From the NCBI GenBank assembly GCA_017521145.1, contig JAFXDR010000033.1:1-40952 (forward strand): 40,952 bases of DNA. The letters are read 5' to 3'. A model generated the notes under the pieces. It saw only the letters and a program-made list of their open reading frames with translations. It made no database searches and was not told where the DNA came from. Numbering within the stretch: position 1 is the first letter of the stretch; the number at the start of each line of letters is the position of its first letter. A program made the translations under genes and the position numbers. Below, one piece after another: positions 1,716-40,312 of this stretch. The stretch comes from Akkermansia sp. (GTDB lineage: Bacteria; Verrucomicrobiota; Verrucomicrobiia; Verrucomicrobiales; Akkermansiaceae).

Positions 1716-3116
1716 TTACACACCAGCAGGCATAGCAGCCGGTGCAGGAGCAGCGGCAGGAGCCGGTGCAGCCGGAGCAACAGGCGCAGGAGTGGCGGGA
1801 GCCACAGGAGCCGGAGTAGCAGGAGCAGCGGCAGGAGTCGCCGGAGCTGCGGGAGCCGGAGTAGCAGAAGCAGCGGCAGGAGCCGCCGGAGCTGCGGGAG
1901 CCGGCAGCGGATTGGTGGTGATAGGAGCATCCGGCGGGGTGTAGGTGAAGTACACCTGGCCATCCACACTGGCATGGTACTGACCACCGGGCACAATGCT
2001 GATGCCCACGGTCTTGCCGGCGTAGTTAGCGGGCGGATTCACACGGTAGCGGCGGATTTCCGGCTGTCCCTCTTTATCGGGGTCACGCACAATCACGGTA
2101 ATCGGCCCCACAATGGGAGCTACCTGTTCGCGGGGAGTCACGCGGCTTTCGCCACCGGCCATCTCACCACAGGGGAATTCCACACCGGCGGCATCGCGGG
2201 CTTCCACCAGGATGCGGCCACCAGTCGTATTGGTCACCTTCACGGAGTAATTCATCAGGCCACCAGGAGTAGTGGGCATAGGGGCAGTCGCCACGATACT
2301 GGGAGCCGTTGCGGGCGGAGCTACCGCATCACCACTGGCATAGACATTGCCATCCACGCTGGCGTGGTACTTACCACCGGGAATGATGCTGATACCCACG
2401 GTCTGGTTGGCGTACTGCGAAGGCGGATTCACCTTGAAACGGCGAATCTCAGGAGCGCCATCCTTATCGGGGTCGCGCACCACAATGGTGATGGGGCCCA
2501 CAATGGGGTTAGCCTGCTCCAGGGGAGTGGTGGCGCTGCGGCCGCCCTCCATGAAACCACAGGGGTAAATGTAACCGGAAGCATCCTGAGCCTCCACGAA
2601 AATCTTACCAGGTGTACTGTTGGTAATGCGTACGGAATAGTTCATCGGCACCCCGGGAATCACGCCCTGTGAGGGCATCATACCAGCGGCAGCACCGGGC
2701 ACCATACCCACCATGGCCTGTCCCGGCACGGCGGTCTGCCCCGGCACCACATTCTGGTGGATGTAGGTCGGAGCGGCAGTATTATTCACCGGCAGCATCG
2801 GCGTGGGAGTGTGCTGCAGAGGAGCCAGGGAACCGGCTGCTGCGGCAGCGGCATTGCCCATGGCAGCACCCATAGCGGCACCAGTCTGCGGCACGGCATT
2901 GTTGTACTGATTCACCTGGGCATCAAAAGCGGCATTCACATCATCCCCACCAACGGCCATGGCGGCCTGTCCAGGGAGCGCAAGATACTGCGCAGGACGA
3001 GCTGTCTGCGGTTTGGCTACCACACTGGCACGGTTCGTCACCACCGTATCATCAGTGGAGCTACAGGAAGCCACCACCAGGGCGGCACTAGCTACAAGAC
3101 TAAGTTTTACCTTCAT
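1716..3116 (-). CDS. Lipoprotein with two tandem ~102-aa beta-rich domains and Pro/Ala-rich linkers and tail
   Basis: MKVKLSLVASAALVVASC gives a lipobox (VAS|C). The domain MNYSV...SVDGxVY occurs twice. The C-terminus is PAAPA-rich. Start trimmed to ATG 3116. Confidence 0.8.
   Translation of the reverse strand: MKVKLSLVASAALVVASCSSTDDTVVTNRASVVAKPQTARPAQYLALPGQAAMAVGGDDVNAAFDAQVNQYNNAVPQTGAAMGAAMGNAAAAAAGSLAPLQHTPTPMLPVNNTAAPTYIHQNVVPGQTAVPGQAMVGMVPGAAAGMMPSQGVIPGVPMNYSVRITNSTPGKIFVEAQDASGYIYPCGFMEGGRSATTPLEQANPIVGPITIVVRDPDKDGAPEIRRFKVNPPSQYANQTVGISIIPGGKYHASVDGNVYASGDAVAPPATAPSIVATAPMPTTPGGLMNYSVKVTNTTGGRILVEARDAAGVEFPCGEMAGGESRVTPREQVAPIVGPITVIVRDPDKEGQPEIRRYRVNPPANYAGKTVGISIVPGGQYHASVDGQVYFTYTPPDAPITTNPLPAPAAPAAPAAASATPAPAAPATPAAAPATPAPVAPATPAPVAPAAPAPAAAPAPAAMPAGV
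1807..1904. repeat. 45-bp tandem repeat (about 2.2 copies) encoding part of the Pro/Ala tail
   Basis: GGAGCCGGAGTAGCAG(G/A)AGCAGCGGCAGGAG(T/C)CGCCGGAGCTGCG starts at 1807 and 1852, with a partial third copy at 1897. Confidence 0.8.
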
Positions 3117-3240
3117 GCTGACACAGAAAATATCACAAATGACAAAAAAAAGCAAGGATAATTATTGCCGATTCTACGGCAGGTAAAAGAACAGAGTCAG
3201 AGGAGTTGATTCCGGGAAACCGCAAGCGCCTCTGCAGGAT

Positions 3241-10766: not shown

Positions 10767-10800
10767 TCCCCTGCAGCCTTGCTGCAGGGGCTTTGTTTGT
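10767..10800. terminator. Intrinsic terminator for the OMP gene, possibly bidirectional
   Basis: CCCCTGCAGC-CTT-GCTGCAGGGG followed by CTTTGTTT. Confidence 0.75.
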
Positions 10801-10968: not shown

Positions 10969-10997
10969 TTGATGAAAGGCGGTCAATGTGCTAGAAT
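10969..10997 (+). promoter_or_regulatory. Sigma70 promoter of coaE-rho, leaderless geometry
   Basis: TTGATG, 17 bp spacer, TAGAAT, GCGCGC, then GTG at 11004. Confidence 0.6.
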
Positions 10998-11003
10998 GCG
11001 CGC

Positions 11004-12902
11004 GTGAAGGTTATTGTTGTAACGGGAGGCATAGCCTCCGGCAAATCTACAGTGGTGGAGCTGCTGCGTGAACTGGGCGGCGAGGGAGTGGAACTTTTCG
11101 ATTGCGATGCCGCCGTGGCTGAACTGCAGCAGGCCGGCAAGCTGTCGCGTGATTTAGTGACAGCGTTCGGCCCCGATGCCCTGTGCGACGATGGCAGTGT
11201 GAACAAGGATTTCCTCCGTGCCATTGTGCAGAATGACCCCGAGGGGCGCGATAAGCTCAACAATGTGGTGCACCCGAAACTGGCGCAGCTGTGTCTGGAT
11301 GCCCAGGCTGCAGCCCGCCAGCGTGGCGATGTGCATACCTTCCTGGTTGATATTCCCCTGTATTTTGAAAGCCCGGTGGAATTCGGAGCCGATGTGGTAT
11401 GCGTGGTAGCCGTGACCCCGGAAACACAGATTGCCCGTATGGCCAGCCGCGATGGCTTTGACCGCCCCACGGCAGAGGCCATGCTGGCCGCCCAGATGCC
11501 TACCCAGGCCAAGATTGACCGCGCCAACCTCGTATTCTGGAACGAAGGCTCCCCTGAAACGCTGCGCAGGCAGGTGGAACTGTTCTATGCCACCGAACTG
11601 GCAGCCGATGCCAAGGCCATGCATGCCCGCTCCGTGGTGGTGAATCTGAACGAGCTGCGCGCCCTGCCGCTCAATGAACTGCAGCGCATCGCCACTACAA
11701 CCGCCCGCCGGGGCACCGATACCCTGCCACGCCCGCAACTGGTGGGTGAGCTGGCCCGCACCTATCTGGCAGAGGGCAGTCAGGTGGTAGTGAGCGGGGT
11801 GCTCGAATTCGGTAAGGACAACATGGTATTCCTGCGCGATGCCGCCCGCAGTTTCCGCCCCGGCGACGATGATCCCCGCATCACCCAGGATTTAATCCGC
11901 AAGCATGAGCTGCGCCCCGGCAACATGGTGAAGGTGAAGCTGCGCCCCGCCCAGGGCAAGCAGGAGCGAAGCCTCATGGCAGGCGAAGTGCTGGAAATTG
12001 AAGGCACGCCGGTTGCTGAGTTCCAGCAGCCCAAACCTTTCGACCGCCTCACCCCGCTCATCCCGACTGAACGATTGATTCTGGAAAACCCGGATATCAA
12101 ATCCCCGGCCATGCGGGTGCTCGACCTCATCACCCCGCTGGGGCTGGGGCAGCGAGCCCTGGTGGTAGCCCCGCCCCGCGGTGGCAAGACCGTGCTGCTC
12201 AAGACCATGGCTAAGAGTCTGCGCGCCAATTACCCCAAGACAGACCTGCTCGTACTGCTGCTGGATGAGCGCCCGGAGGAAGTGACTGATTTTGAGGACA
12301 CGGTGGATGTGCCGGTGTATGCCTCCACCTTTGATGAACCCTCCCGCCGCCACGCGCAGTTGAGCGACCTGCTGCTGGAACGCGCCCGCCGTCTGGTGGA
12401 ACAGGGGCACGATGTCATCATCATGCTCGATTCCCTCACCCGCCTGGCCCGCGGCTACAATGCCAACCAGAGCGGAGGCCGCACCATGTCCGGCGGTCTG
12501 GGTTCCAATGCACTGGAAAAGCCCCGCAAATTCTTTGGTGCCGCCCGCAAGGTGGAGGAAGGCGGAAGCCTCACCATCATTGCCACCTGCCTTATCGAAA
12601 CAGAATCCCGCATGGATGAAATCATCTTCGAGGAATTCAAGGGCACGGGCAACATGGAAATCCGCCTCGACCGCGAGCTTTCCGAGCGCCGCATCTACCC
12701 GGCCATCTCCATTCCCCAGAGCGGAACCCGCAACGATGACCGCCTGTACCACCCGGAGGAGATGATTCGCGTGCTGCAGGTGCGCCGCCAGCTGGCCTCC
12801 CTGCCCGGCTGGGAGGGACTGCAGACCCTGCTCCGGAATATCGACCAGACCCAGAACAACCTGGAAATTCTGCTCAAGGGACTCACTATCTCCACCCGCT
12901 GA
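11004..12902 (+). CDS. rho: Fusion of dephospho-CoA kinase (CoaE, aa ~1-197) and transcription termination factor Rho (aa ~206-632)
   Basis: CoaE part: [35 protein letters not shown]. Rho part: [63 protein letters not shown]. There is no stop codon between the two parts. Confidence 0.92.
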
Positions 12903-12914
12903 GGCATCGCTCGC

Positions 12915-13655
12915 TCAGCGGCGGGGGCTCTTATCTTCCGGGATAATGGCACCCATGTAGGGCAGCAGCTTGTTCATGACGAGGATATTCCCCTCGCCGG
13001 TGATATGCACGCGGTCTTTCCAGCGAATGGTGGCTTTGCGGCCGTTGGGCATGGTGGCGGTGTGCGTGTAACGGCCGTGTGAATCTGCCAGTATGGGGCG
13101 GGTGTTGATGAATCCCAGCCTGTAATGGCGGCAGATGGAGCGCATCAGGTTAGTGATTTCAGCCAGCTGGGAATTGAGCGGCTCTTCATCCATGACCGGT
13201 GGGCTCAACAGAATGATGCGGGCCCGGTAGAACTGGCACAGGCGCACAATTTCCAGAATTTTACCGGCATAGGCGCGCATCCACGGGCGGGAGCACGGCT
13301 CGCCCAACCCGCGCTTGCCATAAATATTCTGCGGGTCGTTAGTACCCACCCACATGACCACGATATGCGGACGGTGCTTGCGCAGGTTCTCCTCCAGCAC
13401 GCGCGGCCAGTTGTAGAAATCCGGGCGGCTGAGGCCCGTGGAGCGTTTACCGATGGGGATGAGGGTGATATTCTCATACCCGGCCATGGCATCGCGCATC
13501 TGCGGCCCCATGGATTCCATAAGGGAATCGCCAGCCAGCAGAATGCGGATAGGACGCGCCGCACGCCCCTTTCCTCCGCATTGCAGATGCATGCCGCAGG
13601 CCACTGGCAGCAGCACGGCCAGTATAAGAAAAACAGTGTGTATCAATCTGCTCAT
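12915..13655 (-). CDS. Exported SGNH/GDSL hydrolase-fold protein (DUF459-like), putative O-acetyltransferase or esterase
   Basis: GDSLM, STGLSRPDFYNWP, GTND and DRVH (DxxH) motifs. The N-terminus looks like a signal peptide or lipobox (LPVAC). Confidence 0.85.
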   Translation of the reverse strand: MSRLIHTVFLILAVLLPVACGMHLQCGGKGRAARPIRILLAGDSLMESMGPQMRDAMAGYENITLIPIGKRSTGLSRPDFYNWPRVLEENLRKHRPHIVVMWVGTNDPQNIYGKRGLGEPCSRPWMRAYAGKILEIVRLCQFYRARIILLSPPVMDEEPLNSQLAEITNLMRSICRHYRLGFINTRPILADSHGRYTHTATMPNGRKATIRWKDRVHITGEGNILVMNKLLPYMGAIIPEDKSPRR

Positions 13656-18569: not shown

Positions 18570-18691
18570 CTTGCATCAGTATATGATGATGACAATAACA
18601 TTATGGACTCTCTGACCGCAAGAAAAATCAACTGTACAATCAATGAAAGCTCAACAAAGAAAGGTTGCCATTCGCCCGTTCGCATGCTAGC

Positions 18692-19321
18692 ATGAACTTA
18701 CGTATGCTACAAAGAAGACTCTCTCTCCTCATCACCCTGATACTACTCTGCTGCCTGAGCAGCTGCATCAGCTTCAATACCGGAGCCAGACTGGACAGTC
18801 TGGGAAAGGCTGTACCCACAGCCACCACATACAATGGGTCGTGCTACCGGCTCAACGGCGTGGCATACAAGGAAGTGATGGTGGAATACCGGCAGCCGAA
18901 TCCCCACCTCATCGGCACAGCCTTCATGGGCTATTTTGATAACAGCGGGCCAGGTCTCCCGGCCGCAGACGAGACCGTAGCCCCGCAGCCGGAGCTCTAT
19001 CTGGCTCGCCTGAGCCCCGCACGTACTGATGCCCCCGGCTTCATCCGCGCCATTGATTTCCCCTATGCCCGGGCCGAGAGGCTCACCCAGAGCAGCAGTC
19101 TCCCGGAATCCTGTTTCAAGCACATGGACTGGCTGACCCTCACCCGCAGCCAGATTGATACAAACCACGAACTGGCAGAGCTGCCGACCATCCGCACCAC
19201 AGGAAACCAGATTCGCCAACCCGTCTCCATTCTGCTTTCCTATGGGGTGGATATGCCCCTCACGGCCGTGGGGTACGCGGTGGGGGGCCTGCTCCAGCTG
19301 CCGATACTGTTGTTTTTCTGA
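18692..19321 (+). CDS. Hypothetical lipoprotein with a C-terminal hydrophobic segment
   Basis: Lipobox LSS|C after a hydrophobic core, and a hydrophobic C-terminus. Start is ATG 18692 or 18704. Confidence 0.65.
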   Translation: MNLRMLQRRLSLLITLILLCCLSSCISFNTGARLDSLGKAVPTATTYNGSCYRLNGVAYKEVMVEYRQPNPHLIGTAFMGYFDNSGPGLPAADETVAPQPELYLARLSPARTDAPGFIRAIDFPYARAERLTQSSSLPESCFKHMDWLTLTRSQIDTNHELAELPTIRTTGNQIRQPVSILLSYGVDMPLTAVGYAVGGLLQLPILLFF

Positions 19322-21194: not shown

Positions 21195-21986
21195 ATGAAA
21201 CGCGTTCTCATCACCATCATTTTCTTCAGCCTGCTCATTCTGGTATGGGCAGCGCTCACCGGGGATCTGTCTGCTTTCGGCCTCGAGCTCAGCCTGTGGT
21301 CACCCTACGTGCTGCCGCCTCCCAGCACAGTGGGTCATTATCTTATCGATAATACCGTCAACGGGAAAATTCCCCTCTCCATGCTCATTACCCTGCGACG
21401 CCTGCTGGTGGGCTATGTCATCGGTCTGGCACTGGGGGTGCCTCTGGGTATGCTGGCAGCGCGCTTCCGCTGCGTGAATGATACCCTGGGCATGCTGGCA
21501 CTGGGTCTGCAGGCGCTGCCCAGCGTGTGCTGGGTTCCGCTGGCCTGCATCTGGTTCGGGCAGACAGAAGCCGCCCTGCTCTTTGTGGTTATCATGGGTA
21601 CCCTGTGGAGCGTGCTGCTCTCCACCCAGAATGGCATGAAGAACGTGCCGCCCATCTATGCCCGCGCCGCCCGCACCATGGGTTCCAGCCCGCTGCATAC
21701 GCTCGTGTTCGTCACCCTGCCCGCCTCGGCTCCCTTTGTAGTAAGCGGCATGAAGCAGGGCTGGGCTTTCGCCTGGCGCTCGCTCATGGCGGCAGAAATC
21801 TATGTATCCGTGGTCTCCGGTTTCGGTATCGGCCAGTACCTGCACTATGGCCGCGAGCTGCAGCGCATGTACCAGGTCATCGGCATTATGTTCATCATCA
21901 TTGCCGTAGGCTTGCTGGCAGATAAGATTCTGTTTTCACCTGTGGAATCCTGGCTGCACCGCCGCTGGGGAACTGATAAGGACTGA
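21195..21986 (+). CDS. ABC transporter permease, SsuC/TauC family
   Basis: LPPP, the EAA-like loop ARAARTMG, AWRSLMAAE, and about 6 TM segments. Confidence 0.9.
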   Translation: MKRVLITIIFFSLLILVWAALTGDLSAFGLELSLWSPYVLPPPSTVGHYLIDNTVNGKIPLSMLITLRRLLVGYVIGLALGVPLGMLAARFRCVNDTLGMLALGLQALPSVCWVPLACIWFGQTEAALLFVVIMGTLWSVLLSTQNGMKNVPPIYARAARTMGSSPLHTLVFVTLPASAPFVVSGMKQGWAFAWRSLMAAEIYVSVVSGFGIGQYLHYGRELQRMYQVIGIMFIIIAVGLLADKILFSPVESWLHRRWGTDKD

Positions 21987-22001
21987 TTGACTATTGCTGC
22001 T

Positions 22002-23381
22002 ATGATGCCGGACTGGATTGATGAGCTCAGGGGGCTGCTGGGAGAGTGCGTGCGCACGGACGATGCCACGCTGCAGGCCCATGCGGGTGATAAATGGCAT
22101 GCCGCGGCGCTGCCGCAGGCTGTGGTGCTGGCCACGGAGACAAAACACGTGGCTACCGCTCTGAAATTTGCCAGTGCACGTGGTATTCCCGTGACCCCGC
22201 GCGGTGCCGGCGTGGGCTATGTGGGCGGCTGCGTGCCGGTCAAGGGAGGCATTGTCATTTCCGTGGCCCGCATGACCCGCATTCTGGAGGTCAACCCGGC
22301 CGATGGGGTGGCCGTGGTGGAAGCCGGCGTGCTCACCGCCGATCTGCAGGCCGCCTGTGCTGAGCAGGGCTGGTTCTACCCGCCTGACCCCGCCTCGCGC
22401 AAGGAATCCAGCATAGGCGGCAACATTGCCACCAATGCCGGCGGTCCCCGCTGCCTGAAATACGGCGTGACCCGCGCCTATGTGCTGGGGCTCACCGTAG
22501 TGCTGGCCGATGGCCGTGTGCTGCGCTGCGGCGGGCGCACCCACAAGAACAAGCAGGGCTTTGACCTGGTGGGGCTTTTCTGCGGCAGCGAAGGCATGCT
22601 CGGCATTGTAACCGAAGCCACGCTGCGTATCATTCCCGCACCGCCTGCCCGCGCCGCACTGCACGCCAGCTTCCCGCAATTTGCCCTGGCCGCCGCCGCG
22701 GTGCAGAACACCCTGCAAGGCGGCCACCTTCCCTGCGCCATCGAAATCACGGATGCCTTTACCCTGGCCGCCGCCCGCAAGCACCTGGGTCCCAGCGCCC
22801 TGCCCGCCGGCGCCAGGGGGCACATCATCATTGAAATTGATGGCCAGGCCGATGCCGTGGCCACCGAGCTGGAAGCCATTGCCGCCATTCTGCGCGGAAC
22901 CGGCGCCACCGATGTGGTCTACGCCCGCACCGAAGAAGAAGTCGAAGGCATCTGGCAGCTGCGCCGCGAATTCTCCTACAGTCTGAAAGCCACCGGGCTC
23001 ACCAAGCTCAACGAAGATATCGTCATTCCCCGCTCGCAGCTGGTGGCGCTCGTCAGCTTCTGCGAGAGCATGCAGCAGGAAACCGGAATCCCCGTGGCCT
23101 GCTTCGGCCACAGCGGCGATGGCAACATCCACACCAATATCATGGTGCTCAAGGATGCCACCGGACGCGATATCCGCGAACCGGCCGATGCCCTGGTGAA
23201 CCGCCTTTTCGACTGGGTGATGGCTCACGGCGGCAGCATCACCGGCGAGCACGGAATCGGCCTGGCCAAAGCACCCTGGTTTGAACAGGCCATCGGCAGC
23301 GTTGCCATGGATACCCACCGGACTCTCAAGGCTGCGCTTGACCCCGCAGGCATTCTCAATCCCGGCAAAATGAACCTGTAA
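22002..23381 (+). CDS. FAD-linked oxidoreductase, GlcD / D-2-hydroxyacid dehydrogenase family
   Basis: PRGAGVGYVGG, YPPDPAS, IGGNIATNAGG, KYGVT, GSEGMLG, GHSGDGNIH, GEHGIG and LNPGK. Start is ATG 22002, or TTG 21987. Confidence 0.88.
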   Translation: MMPDWIDELRGLLGECVRTDDATLQAHAGDKWHAAALPQAVVLATETKHVATALKFASARGIPVTPRGAGVGYVGGCVPVKGGIVISVARMTRILEVNPADGVAVVEAGVLTADLQAACAEQGWFYPPDPASRKESSIGGNIATNAGGPRCLKYGVTRAYVLGLTVVLADGRVLRCGGRTHKNKQGFDLVGLFCGSEGMLGIVTEATLRIIPAPPARAALHASFPQFALAAAAVQNTLQGGHLPCAIEITDAFTLAAARKHLGPSALPAGARGHIIIEIDGQADAVATELEAIAAILRGTGATDVVYARTEEEVEGIWQLRREFSYSLKATGLTKLNEDIVIPRSQLVALVSFCESMQQETGIPVACFGHSGDGNIHTNIMVLKDATGRDIREPADALVNRLFDWVMAHGGSITGEHGIGLAKAPWFEQAIGSVAMDTHRTLKAALDPAGILNPGKMNL

Positions 23382-23405
23382 GCCCCCCACTAACACGATA
23401 TGGGG

Positions 23406-23434
23406 TTGACACATCCCCCGCTGCGCCGTATCAT
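23406..23434 (+). promoter_or_regulatory. Putative sigma70 promoter
   Basis: TTGACA, 17 bp spacer, TATCAT. Confidence 0.65.
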
Positions 23435-24930: not shown

Positions 24931-26076
24931 TCACTTCTTCGGGAACCCCACCTTGACCTTCTTGCCGCGCCATGCGCGCACAAACTGGTTCTGGAGCCGG
25001 GCTGCCGTGTGGTAGGGCTTGATGAGCACCTCCGCGGCCTCCTGCGGAGATTTACCATCCAGCAGCGCCTGGAGATACGCCTTCATGGCATCAATACCGC
25101 GCTTGCCATCCAGATGCACAAAGAAAGCAAGAGTCATCACAGACAGCATATAGGTATCCTTGCGCTGCCCCATGTATCCATACATGGTCTGCTGATCCAT
25201 GGTGAGGAAATCTTCCAGTTTGAAATCAAAATCCAAAGCACCGAAAGGAACCCGCTTCCTGGCCTCATGCAGAATCAGGGAGAAACCACGGTCGAAATCC
25301 AGGTCTTCCCCCACATAGGGCACATAGCCCACGTACTCAGCCCAGCCCTCATTGGCCCAGATAGGCAGGCGGTTCAGCATGAATTGCTGGTGGGTCAGCT
25401 CGTGCACCAGCGCGTGGGTATCAATATCCTCCCGCTGCACAGCACCGGAGCGGGTCAGCCCGAGAGATTCGAAAGGAATCATCACGCGGTCCATCACCAC
25501 CGCAGCTTCCGAACCGGGGGTCGTACCCTCGCGGGAGACAAACTGGAACACACCCGCAGAGCCCTCGGGGCCGCCGGCTTCCAGATACGCGGCCTTAGTA
25601 GGCTGCAACACGATGGCAAATTTCTTATTGCCACGGTCCAGGGTCGTGCGATGCACCGGCAGCACTCCTGCAATAGCCTTGTTGGCAGCATAGGCGCATT
25701 CGCACAGGCGCGCCACCGTCTGCTGAGCACTCGGCGGCAGCTTGACCGGGGAGACGTAGCAGTAATTGTTCGACTCATACAGGAAGCCGGGCTTGCCCTG
25801 CGGCTTGCCAAGCTCTTTCACCTCGGTCTCTTTCGGCACCGAAACCTGGCGGGGCCAGTCACCGGGATTCTTGACCCGCACATTCCTGACCCCCATTTCA
25901 CGAAGCTCGCGTTTCTTACGGCTGGCAGCCTTGCGCACATTGCGCCCCTTGTCCTTACCGGCGCGCACTGAGCTGCCGCTTCCGGTGAATCCGTCCTCCT
26001 CCTCTGCCCCGGCCTGCAAAGCCAGGGGCAGCATAAGTACGGCCGCAGCCAGCAGATAGAAACACCATTTCTTCAT
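24931..26076 (-). CDS. Exported putative Zn metallopeptidase (gluzincin-like, DUF1570/peptidase MA-like)
   Basis: Signal peptide (…LALQA|G), HELTH, and downstream PIWANEGWAEY supplying a third Glu ligand. Confidence 0.72.
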   Translation of the reverse strand: MKKWCFYLLAAAVLMLPLALQAGAEEEDGFTGSGSSVRAGKDKGRNVRKAASRKKRELREMGVRNVRVKNPGDWPRQVSVPKETEVKELGKPQGKPGFLYESNNYCYVSPVKLPPSAQQTVARLCECAYAANKAIAGVLPVHRTTLDRGNKKFAIVLQPTKAAYLEAGGPEGSAGVFQFVSREGTTPGSEAAVVMDRVMIPFESLGLTRSGAVQREDIDTHALVHELTHQQFMLNRLPIWANEGWAEYVGYVPYVGEDLDFDRGFSLILHEARKRVPFGALDFDFKLEDFLTMDQQTMYGYMGQRKDTYMLSVMTLAFFVHLDGKRGIDAMKAYLQALLDGKSPQEAAEVLIKPYHTAARLQNQFVRAWRGKKVKVGFPKK

Positions 26077-38266: not shown

Positions 38267-39019
38267 TTAGAAATCCTCCCCATCCAGCACTTCCTGGGCG
38301 GTACCGCGCTGGTAGGTGCTGCCCAGGCGCCGCTCGCGGTCCATCTGCACAGACACCACGGAAAGAATGTGGGTCACGGCCACTTCCATATCGGCAATGC
38401 GTTTCTGAATGCGGCTGCGGAAGAACACATAGGCAGCCATGGCAGGAATAGCCAGCACCAGACCACCGGCAGTGGTAATCATGGCTTCAGCGATACCGTG
38501 AGCCATCTGCATCTGCTTCACGCCCTCAAAGTTGCCGGCGGCCATTTCCATGAAAGTCTTCATCATACCCACCACGGTACCCAGCAGACCAATCATGGGT
38601 GCAATGGCGCCAATATCAGAAAGCCAGTTAATCTGGCGGGTCAGGATATTGGTCTGGCGGGCACCCTCGGCAGAGGCCACTTCACGCACCTCCTCAATAC
38701 CGGCACGGGGGTTACGCTGCAGGAACATCACAATCACGTGCATGGTGAGGGCAAAGCTGGAGCCGTCGCGCTCGCACATGCTCATGAGCCCGGCGTAGTC
38801 CTTGCGGCGGATGCAGGATTCAACCGACATCACCATACGGGGCGGCAGCACGGCCGAGGTGCGCGTGGTCCAGAGGCACACGAACATCACCATAAAAGCC
38901 ACGACAGAAAGGAAAAGCAAAGGCCACATGAGAGGACCGCCTTTTTCGAAAAGCTCCATAAGCCCCCAGCCCATCGACTTCAGAGGATCTGTTGCAGAAA
39001 GGAAAACATGCATATTCAC
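38267..39019 (-). CDS. ExbB/TolQ/MotA-family proton channel protein
   Basis: GGPLMWPL, IAPMIGLLGTVVGM and GIAEAMITTAGGLVLAIPA. Start is GTG 39019 (leaderless) or ATG 39013. Confidence 0.92.
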   Translation of the reverse strand: MNMHVFLSATDPLKSMGWGLMELFEKGGPLMWPLLFLSVVAFMVMFVCLWTTRTSAVLPPRMVMSVESCIRRKDYAGLMSMCERDGSSFALTMHVIVMFLQRNPRAGIEEVREVASAEGARQTNILTRQINWLSDIGAIAPMIGLLGTVVGMMKTFMEMAAGNFEGVKQMQMAHGIAEAMITTAGGLVLAIPAMAAYVFFRSRIQKRIADMEVAVTHILSVVSVQMDRERRLGSTYQRGTAQEVLDGEDF

Positions 39020-39025
39020 GCGCGC

Positions 39026-39054
39026 ATTATAGGCAAAAACTGAGCCGATTTCAA
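39026..39054 (-). promoter_or_regulatory. Sigma70 promoter of the exbB-like operon
   Basis: TTGAAA, 17 bp spacer, TATAAT, GCGCGC, then GTG at 39019. Confidence 0.7.
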
Positions 39055-39106
39055 GCGAGATACCTGTCTGTATTGTTTTTTTTGCGCAAAAGGGAGTGAA
39101 TAAATG

Positions 39107-39135
39107 TTGCAATCGCGTGGCCGGAAGCTTAGAAT
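39107..39135 (+). promoter_or_regulatory. Sigma70 promoter of alr, leaderless geometry
   Basis: TTGCAA, 17 bp spacer, TAGAAT, then 6 nt to ATG 39142. Confidence 0.65.
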
Positions 39136-39141
39136 AAAGCC

Positions 39142-40248
39142 ATGCAGGACACATCTCTCTTCCGCGCCTGGGCTGAGGTAGACACCGCCGCCATGCGCCA
39201 TAATCTGGCCGTGGTGCGCCGCGTGCTGCCCGACCATAAGCAGATGGCCATTGTCAAGGCCGAAGCCTACGGCCACGGCCTCGAAGGCGTAGTCAAGGCA
39301 CTGGATGACTGTGATCTGGAATTCTTCGGCGTGGCCACCCCGGCAGAAGCCGCGCGGGTGCAGGCCGCAGGCTGCCGCACCTGCCCGCTGATCCTGGGCC
39401 CCTGCTTCCCGGCAGAACGCGAGATGGTGGTGCAGAATGGCTGGCGGGCCGCACTCTCCAGCCTGGAGGAAGCCGCGCATTACAACTCGCTGGGGCAGTT
39501 GTATGATAAGAAGGTGCACCTGCATATCAATGTGGACACCGGCATGGGGCGTGCCGGCCTCCTGCCCCACACACTCAGCGAAATGGGGCCCCGCCTGGCA
39601 GATTTTGAGCATCTGAATATTGAGGGCGTGTACTCCCATCTTTCCGCTGCGGCAGATGACATCGCCTTTACCCACCGCCAGATCCGCAGCTATGGGGAAG
39701 CCGTGGCCGAGCTGAGCACCTACCTGAACATTCCCTACCGCCACCTGTGCAGCAGTTCTGCCGTGTTCAACTACAACGCACCCGGCACCAACATGGTGCG
39801 TCTGGGGCGCATTCTCTACGGCTACTCCCCCATGCCCTCCCCCTATAACCGGGAACTGCGCAACACTCTTACCCTCTTCAGCCGGGTCACCCTGCTGCGA
39901 ACCCTGCCCGACAACCACGGCGTTTCCTACAACCACACCTACATCACCAGCGGCCCCACCCGCGTGGCCACCATCGGCCTGGGCTTTGGCGATGGCTACC
40001 TGCATTACCTTTCCAACACCGGCGCGCGCGTTTATCTGAACGGCCAGTACTGCCCGGTGCTGGGCCGCGTGACCATGGACCAGATTATGGTGGATGTGAC
40101 CCACCTGCCCCGGGTTCAGGCGGGCGATGTAGCAGAAATCATGGGGCCGAACGTCCCCTGGGAGGAACTGACCACCCGCGCCAGAACCATTCCCAGCAAC
40201 ATCATTACCAGCATTACCGGGCGCGTTCCCCGCGTCTATAAGGACTAA
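39142..40248 (+). CDS. alr: Alanine racemase
   Basis: PLP-lysine motif [34 protein letters not shown] (catalytic Tyr), GFGDG and GRVTMDQ. Confidence 0.95.
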
Positions 40249-40277
40249 GCGTCCGCTGCACTCCTTTCCCCGCCATG

Positions 40278-40312
40278 AAAAAGGCACGCAAGCAGAACTT
40301 GCGTGCCTTTTC
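40278..40312. terminator. Bidirectional intrinsic terminator between alr and tpiA
   Basis: AAAAAGGCACGCAAG-CAGAA-CTTGCGTGCCTTTT between the converging genes. Confidence 0.85.

Follow-up and report, generated by a model that had tools for sequence, protein, structure and literature searches.

The window analyzed here, a 40,952 nt stretch of Akkermansia sp. DNA (contig JAFXDR010000033.1), carries a gene in which coaE, for dephospho-CoA kinase, runs in frame into rho, for the transcription terminator; this coaE-rho gene is real and encodes an apparently undescribed Rho variant. The original prediction of such a fusion is borne out by a single ORF of 632 codons, with a GTG start and no internal stops, that matches both domain families, the Pfam matches being to CoaE at residues 3–183 (E 2e-36), Rho_RNA_bind at 263–335 and ATP-synt_ab at 370–573. 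The features of the locus, in window positions, are:

10768–10800, + strand: intrinsic terminator of the upstream beta-barrel gene (10-bp stem, 8 of its pairs G-C, followed by a run of T)
10969–10997, + strand: predicted sigma-70-type promoter (TTGATG, 17 nt, extended -10 TAGAAT), 6 nt before the start codon
11004–12902, + strand: whole coaE-rho fusion ORF, 632 aa (ORF reading and junction-bridging contigs)
11004–11588, + strand: CoaE, dephospho-CoA kinase domain, aa 1–195 (profiles and alignment); sole coaE found in the genome
11553–11633, + strand: predicted continuous helix, aa 184–210 (AlphaFold2, pLDDT about 90)
11619–11621, + strand: in-frame ATG (M206), not a conserved start (conservation counts; MFE -12.7)
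11640–11789, + strand: Rho N-terminal helical bundle, aa 213–262, diverged (NF006886 and model; dN/dS 0.18)
11790–12014, + strand: Rho OB-fold RNA-binding domain, aa 263–337 (E. coli alignment; dN/dS 0.19)
12060–12872, + strand: Rho RecA-type ATPase/translocase, with P-loop, catalytic Glu-Arg, Walker B, R-loop and arginine finger (dN/dS 0.056)

The source genome assembly is fragmented (204 contigs, 85% complete), which speaks for an assembly or sequencing artefact. Logan contigs nevertheless bridge the junction in all four DNA runs, from four studies, without any stop or indel; three of them show 0 differences and one shows 15 substitutions and no gap, and one of the four runs may be the source sample itself. 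Likewise, close relatives do not all have separate genes, as 103 of the 118 Akkermansia genomes with the locus are fused. An artefact, refuted on both counts, retains practically no probability: the fusion is no artefact. A contig from RNA runs (X18, 11154–11671, 14 differences) also bridges the junction and is a weak hint of a junction transcript (contigs from three runs, with possible DNA carry-over). Both Pfam domains are also present in all of the 120 best homologues listed of 7445; two of the 120 are labelled Akkermansiaceae.

Anatomy and expression of the fused gene

The CoaE part scores above the cut-offs of PF01121 (125.7 vs. 27 bits) and TIGR00152 (115.8 vs. 65.55 bits) and, when aligned to E. 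coli CoaE, contains the P-loop, D-x-D, HP, P-L-x-x-E and lid arginines. Residues K14 (P-loop), D33, D35, H90 and R149 are conserved in 72/72 loci of the compact Akkermansia clade, to which the window's fusion belongs, and dN/dS of the CoaE part in this fused clade is 0.125 (25 disjoint pairs). The fused copy is the only CoaE match in the genome of the window, and exactly one match occurs in 115 of the 117 Akkermansia genomes possessing any. The domain likely phosphorylates dephospho-CoA, that is, makes CoA. The genome also contains coaD, as well as coaB and coaC, the latter two as separate genes on different contigs (C186:24181-24795 and C68:6336-6899), in contrast to the rho-fused coaE. The fused CoaE is acidic (net charge -7.9), compared with +0.7 for CoaE of unfused Akkermansia, and the acidic tail of the unfused Akkermansia Rho-A (net -10.7) is absent in the fusion; CoaE may have assumed the electrostatic role of this tail, a post-hoc pattern from one clade.

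The Rho part passes the cut-off of NF006886 (458 vs. 315) and lies below those of TIGR00767 (446 vs. 509) and of the short-form Rho2 profile NF041509 (364–365 bits vs. 628). Pfam Rho_N was not detected by profile search in the fusion protein; the helical bundle is present, as the alignment to NF006886 starts at profile position 2, helices are predicted at 215–256 and the fold aligns over its full length, the model matching E. coli Rho with TM 0.89 over 420 columns at about 40% identity. The ATPase motifs had been described as intact, and indeed the P-loop, Walker B, loops and arginine finger are all present; the motor motifs, including the Q- and R-loops, are invariant in 72/72 loci and near-invariant in 121 proteins. 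The Rho part may hexamerize and terminate transcription.

The primary RNA-binding site has a different history. F62 and Y80 of E. coli Rho serve in the pyrimidine pocket; by alignment to that protein, from which the numbering is taken, the window's copy has M274 for F62 and R292 for Y80, and retains the equivalents of F64, R66 and D78. The fused Rho hence departs from the canonical primary site (F62, F64, R66, D78, Y80), which lowers its claim to be a canonical Rho and leaves its membership of the Rho family standing. Both F62 and Y80 equivalents are lost in 62/72 compact Akkermansia loci, while those of R66, D77 and D78 are kept in 71–72 of 72; in the remaining 103 Akkermansiaceae loci, F62 is aromatic in 103/103 and Y80 is Y or H in 101/103. 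The losses involve many different replacement residues, scattered over several branches, a pattern that fits relaxation better than new specificity. Fusions from groups g12 and g14, from Sumerlaeota and from the P0154 group retain the primary site, so decay of the RNA site is no general outcome of fusion. Changes at this site need not abolish RNA binding either, because a non-canonical RNP1 was noted in Rhos from Actinomycetota and PVC bacteria (Moreira et al., 2024; PMC11347177). E. coli Rho Y80C is described as rut-defective and still able to support H-NS silencing (PMC12360218). In unfused Akkermansia (three pairs only), dN/dS is 0.18 (CoaE), 0.03 (bundle), 0.046 (OB fold) and 0.024 (ATPase). 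The ratio of OB to ATPase divergence, in amino-acid distances, is 5.2 in the fused clade and 4.6 in the unfused g10; g14 and three other groups were also compared by amino-acid distances instead of dN/dS.

In the AlphaFold2 prediction (50 sequences, mean pLDDT 85.5, pTM 0.70; 74–77 for the other four models), helix 184–210 comprises the last CoaE helix and the linker and runs up to the first Rho strand. The segment 190–215 is 26 aa long without indels in 72/72 compact Akkermansia loci, and dN/dS of the linker is 0.12 (25 disjoint pairs), on par with the CoaE part. Linkers of the same length, or close variants, look non-helical in 8/72 loci (five clearly Pro/Ser-rich), and the only invariant residues over positions 188–262 are Q190, N216, L226, A230 and R243. 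A complex prediction with CoaE (1–196) and the Rho part (205–628) gave no answer (score 0.00) and argues neither for nor against contact.

A stand-alone Rho had been proposed to start at the ATG at 11619, preceded by AAGG. The codon is in frame; the AAGG lies only 2 nt upstream, within the codons for Lys204 and Ala205. Met occurs at this position in 58/121 proteins and 32/72 loci, no ATG is found within codons 196–214 in 38/72 compact Akkermansia loci, and the mRNA is structured at the ATG, with a folding energy of -12.7 kcal/mol against roughly -3 for true rho starts. An internal start at 11619 is thus not supported.

The terminator at 10768–10800 divides the beta-barrel gene from coaE-rho. 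The same promoter layout, ending 6–7 nt before the start, is present in 68/72 loci, with the TG extension in 63; the pattern, defined after inspecting the sequences, matches 260 of 153,809 ATG/GTG sites in the genome (0.17%). From this promoter geometry, the coaE-rho mRNA is predicted to be leaderless; around 10% of transcription start sites were reported as leaderless in A. muciniphila (PMC4782308). With a looser pattern, a comparable layout is seen in 15/15 loci of the compact clade g12. In most Akkermansiaceae, including g14, coaE follows a secretin gene with its terminator; the secretin is missing from the locus in the compact Akkermansia clade (0/7 and 0/80 loci). Unfused relatives share a conserved hairpin ahead of coaE, which was considered as a riboswitch or attenuator and turned out to be the terminator of the secretin gene; there were no Rfam matches in 20 loci or in the window. 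This secretin may correspond to PilQ as reported in PMC4960237. Loci L036-L045 and L056-L115 show no obvious promoter between the secretin terminator and coaE-rho, whose expression may there rely on read-through. At its other end, the fusion in the window lies 12 nt from a convergent cluster of an MBOAT and two DUF459 genes (PatB-like O-acetylation; window 12902–12915), and no intrinsic terminator was found in between, making this a candidate Rho-dependent end. Elsewhere in the window, six long ORFs (225–1124, 1716–3155, 18665–19321, 21936–23414, 24931–26076 and 39016–40287) match neither Pfam nor NCBIfam; some could be shadow frames of opposite-strand genes.

Distribution and origins of the fusion

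The genus sample consisted of 121 evenly drawn Akkermansia genomes, 118 with the locus and 3 without a match. The 103 fused genomes comprise 102 with a single match spanning the junction plus G002, assigned by locus inspection, and the other 15 have separate genes, with CoaE frames of at most 270 codons. Stops flagged in some full-length matches sit in frames of at least 632 codons, and three loci taken at first for interrupted ones (L225, L226 and L241) are fused after all, with slightly shorter C-termini. One of them, L225, is from a MAG titled A. muciniphila (label as given), and its product is 66% identical to the query; Table S2 of Moreira et al. (2024; PMC11347177) gives A. muciniphila a stand-alone Rho of 474 aa and another Rho of 584 aa. 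Among the best 80 of 426 in GTDB, a set biased to close relatives, most of the named loci come from MAGs that bear the label Akkermansia sp., and many originate from ruminant gut.

A survey of the family covered 110 loci in 109 of 151 genomes: 63 are fused, 41 are separate and 6 have no coaE match (two rows were reclassified by hand); selection favored full-length matches, so these numbers are not frequencies. Counts over loci and genomes, here and above, are from related genomes and not independent. One of the 6 loci without a coaE match, G003, looks fused. The idea that the fusion arose from neighboring genes agrees with the position of coaE directly upstream of rho in the 41 unfused Akkermansiaceae loci and in 10/12 Verrucomicrobiota loci outside the family. 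The rho ATG overlaps the coaE stop or lies within 10 nt of it in 35/41 unfused loci, the commonest offsets being -4 and -8, with at least one ATG pick doubtful. The linkage is breakable, as coaE is absent from the 1.8 kb upstream of rho in two g6 genomes (L097 and L098). Other oddities in the family are the Rhos from g10 and g20 (L093, L104, L105, L115, L106-L108), with long Lys/Ala-rich N-terminal repeats (KKAAKK) resembling histone-like tails, and G050 (g12), which has two distinct fused copies (C17:47013-48908 and C47:3053-4948), by duplication or binning contamination.

The fusions are of two kinds. In Met-keeping fusions (n = 33), the Rho Met and acidic tail directly follow the last CoaE helix, and mRNA folding at this Met (-3.9 kcal/mol; control -12.3) resembles that at true starts (-3.1; control -10.4); compact fusions (n = 30) lack the Rho Met and have no open mRNA window (-9.9; control -10.2). 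Folding energy alone separated both kinds, partly confounded by the acidic residues after Met; the two did not separate by AT-richness ahead of the internal Met (p 0.42). A quick Rho tree of 106 rows (SH-aLRT only; the 6 loci without a coaE match and 8 distant rows were left out) requires at least 9 changes between fused and separate states, compared with 27 or more for shuffled labels. A single origin was rejected both for all fusions (p-AU 5e-58) and for compact fusions (p-AU 1e-37). The compact fusions group into three clades, none of which contains a separate gene, and separate genes nest within Met-keeping groups; from this tree, several lineages appear to have re-split coaE and rho.

In a phylum sample of 201 genomes, full-length matches were only in Akkermansiaceae, among the matches listed (108 more lay outside the list). 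A search of representative sequences retrieved fusions outside the family in two other Verrucomicrobia, in a Sumerlaeota group (5 clusters), in a 14-cluster group whose closest named match is a Planctomycetota Rho, and in P0166. These fall apart on a Rho tree, with separate CoaE-Rho fusions in Sumerlaeota and other lineages; the linkers of independent fusions are unrelated, from helix to Pro-rich or long acidic stretches. P0166 and P0360 are long CoaE-Rho fusions (796 and 1068 aa); P0166 has a low-complexity region before CoaE and a P-loop reading GEQGAGKS, and its kinase may be degenerate. CoaE is also joined to PF01464, PF03703, PF04229, PF07072, PF01149, PF00849 and others, and this range of downstream partners suggests that it fuses readily.

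A second Rho (Rho-B) is present in 117/121 Akkermansia genomes; the existence of two Rhos in PVC bacteria was already known (PMC11347177). Rho-B from the window's genome (contig C110, L003:1483-2898) is of the group B type, has a Gln/Arg/Asn-rich N-terminus without the helical bundle and scores 379 bits on NF041509, below its cut-off of 628. Its neighbors, named from their translations, are presumably lepA and a yebC-like gene. Rho-B from the window's clade keeps F62, F64, R66 and Y80 in 32/32 and has Ala at the position of D78 in 32/32. No nusG was detected in the window's genome (85% complete assembly) and NusG is present in 5/5 relatives, so its absence is treated as an assembly gap.

A possible ratchet and its alternatives

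The account that we favor, at a probability just past even, is that of a passenger fusion made irreversible, with labor divided between two Rhos. The gene encodes the sole dephospho-CoA kinase joined to one of two Rhos, probably as one obligate chain of ~70 kDa; the kinase would be located at the ring's outer N-terminal rim and would probably make CoA without regulating the motor. The ancestral order would have been secretin, terminator, coaE and rho; as the stop of coaE overlapped the ATG of rho, a small indel would suffice to fuse both genes. Early fusions would retain the Rho start and could hence revert; in the window's Akkermansia clade, the Rho start codon and the acidic N-terminal tail would later have been deleted, and a single-copy coaE, a Rho motor under selection and the lost Rho start would jointly have removed the way back. 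The gene would have acquired its own leaderless-type promoter and the joint would have hardened to a helix; the motor would have stayed intact while the rut-catching aromatics were lost repeatedly, with Rho-B now performing most RNA recognition and the fused Rho acting with NusG/RNAP assistance or within rings mixed with Rho-B. In Salmonella, a single copy of an N-terminal sfGFP-Rho was reported not to sustain viability (bioRxiv 2026.05.02.722398), so tolerance of a folded domain at the N-terminus cannot be taken for granted, which suggests why the second Rho may have helped. Some results count against a mere passenger, in that fusion recurs in several distant lineages and an indel-free helical linker under purifying selection exceeds the needs of a neutral tether. 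Likewise, the ratio of 4.6 in unfused g10, the small number of unfused dN/dS pairs and the Ala at D78 of Rho-B weaken the division of labor.

In most Akkermansia species, CoaE might also replace the RNA-catching crown of Rho to make a metabolite-gated terminator, in which CoA status, via the rigid helix or CoA-capped 5′ ends, would decide loading and termination while the second Rho serves ordinary rut sites; we give this a small but appreciable probability. That substrate binding and lid closure in CoaE act allosterically through helix 184–210 on the Rho bundle, so that CoA or dephospho-CoA tunes termination, is unlikely: the continuous predicted helix, the constant length of the 26-aa segment, its enzyme-like dN/dS, the repeated origins and the coaE-rho adjacency maintained across Verrucomicrobiota would all agree with it, but independent fusions have unrelated linkers, eight linkers in the clade itself look non-helical, several lineages apparently re-split the genes, CoaE is joined to many unrelated partners, and five invariant residues over 188–262 make no clear conserved interface. 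Recognition by CoaE of dephospho-CoA-capped RNA 5′ ends, substituting for the lost primary site in Rho loading, is very improbable. The primary site has decayed in the window's clade, capped RNA would resemble CoA in being phosphorylated at the adenosine 3′ position, and CoaD, whose gene is present in the genome, makes CoA-RNA in vitro (PMC10761072); according to the same source, however, CoaE acts on the 3′-OH, dephospho-CoA is ~100–200x scarcer than NAD, and ATP blocks RNA capping by CoaD. In a capped RNA, the RNA chain occupies this 3′-OH, so that the cap is no substrate. Moreover, the kinase site does not differ from an ordinary CoaE site and is still needed for the supply of CoA, and the domain is acidic.

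Other alternatives concern the Rho part itself. It is decidedly unlikely that the fused Rho no longer terminates transcription by itself, as an ATPase ring functional only in hetero-hexamers with Rho-B or serving in RNA clearance or scaffolding, given that motor and secondary-site motifs are all invariant, that R66, D77 and D78 are almost always kept, and that the unfused Akkermansia Rho-A combines an acidic tail with an intact primary site. This possibility would account for the lost primary-site aromatics and for an acidic CoaE above the RNA entry face; acidic appendages were reported to lower Rho activity in Salmonella (bioRxiv 2026.05.02.722398) and hetero-hexamers were proposed for two-Rho species (Moreira et al., 2024; PMC11347177). 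Two products, with Rho freed alongside the fusion by an internal start or proteolysis, are likely where fusions keep the Rho Met, as 33 do in other genera; for the window's clade we hold them to be quite improbable in spite of Met206 in the window's copy and 32/72 relatives, as over half of the loci lack an ATG around the joint (GTG or TTG starts being possible in single loci), the mRNA is structured and the linker is predicted as helix instead of an exposed loop.

Relation to known Rho proteins and significance

The fused Rho most resembles the Group A Rho from two-Rho PVC bacteria (Type 2 in Moreira et al., 2024; PMC11347177), with which it shares a full bundle, OB fold and ATPase and the coexistence with a second Rho lacking the N-terminal bundle; a non-canonical RNP1 is also noted there for PVC. 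It differs in that its N-terminal extra is a folded, intact enzyme and not a disordered tail, the Rho extensions surveyed in that paper being predicted disordered regions. From E. coli Rho (PDB 8q3q, 1pv4 and others), with which it shares the fold and all motor motifs, it is set apart by the replacement of F62 and Y80, the N-terminal CoaE and a leaderless-type gene. E. coli rho is controlled by attenuation in its leader, which a leaderless-type gene would lack. Other CoaE proteins with C-terminal partners (CoaE-GrpB/PF04229, NF002879; PF03703, PF01464, PF07072) likewise have an intact N-terminal CoaE and a downstream domain, whereas the partner here is a hexameric RNA motor, with the kinase predicted in up to six copies. 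The fluorescent-protein-Rho chimeras from Salmonella (bioRxiv 10.64898/2026.05.02.722398) also place a folded domain at the N-terminal face of Rho, with surface charge proposed as decisive; by comparison, the fusion occurs in nature, where purifying selection acts on it, and it retains the helical bundle in a host with a second Rho.

A search of the literature outside subscription journals and bioRxiv supplements found no paper describing a CoaE-Rho fusion. None is described in PMC8762339, and the main text and supplement of Moreira et al. (2024; PMC11347177) do not mention CoaE, dephospho or fusion, with kinase and PF01121 absent from the supplement. New features are the conserved leaderless-type promoter, the indel-free predicted helix of the linker and the loss of F62 and Y80. 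NCBI names the protein as Rho only, and one automatic JGI name (P0356) gives both functions; as a consequence of Rho-only naming, pathway tools may miss coaE in fused genomes.

Most of the Akkermansia genomes sampled and, independently, several other lineages thus have a Rho to which an essential metabolic enzyme is attached. The relatives provide a full series, from separate genes to fusions with and without the Rho start and with the RNA site intact or decayed, with which natural proteins can test the roles of the two PVC Rho paralogues and how far termination proceeds when the primary site does not recognize rut. Should CoA status indeed tune the ring, a direct metabolic input would be built into the terminator; in the reading that we favor, coaE-rho would cleanly exemplify a gene-fusion ratchet that turns one way only.
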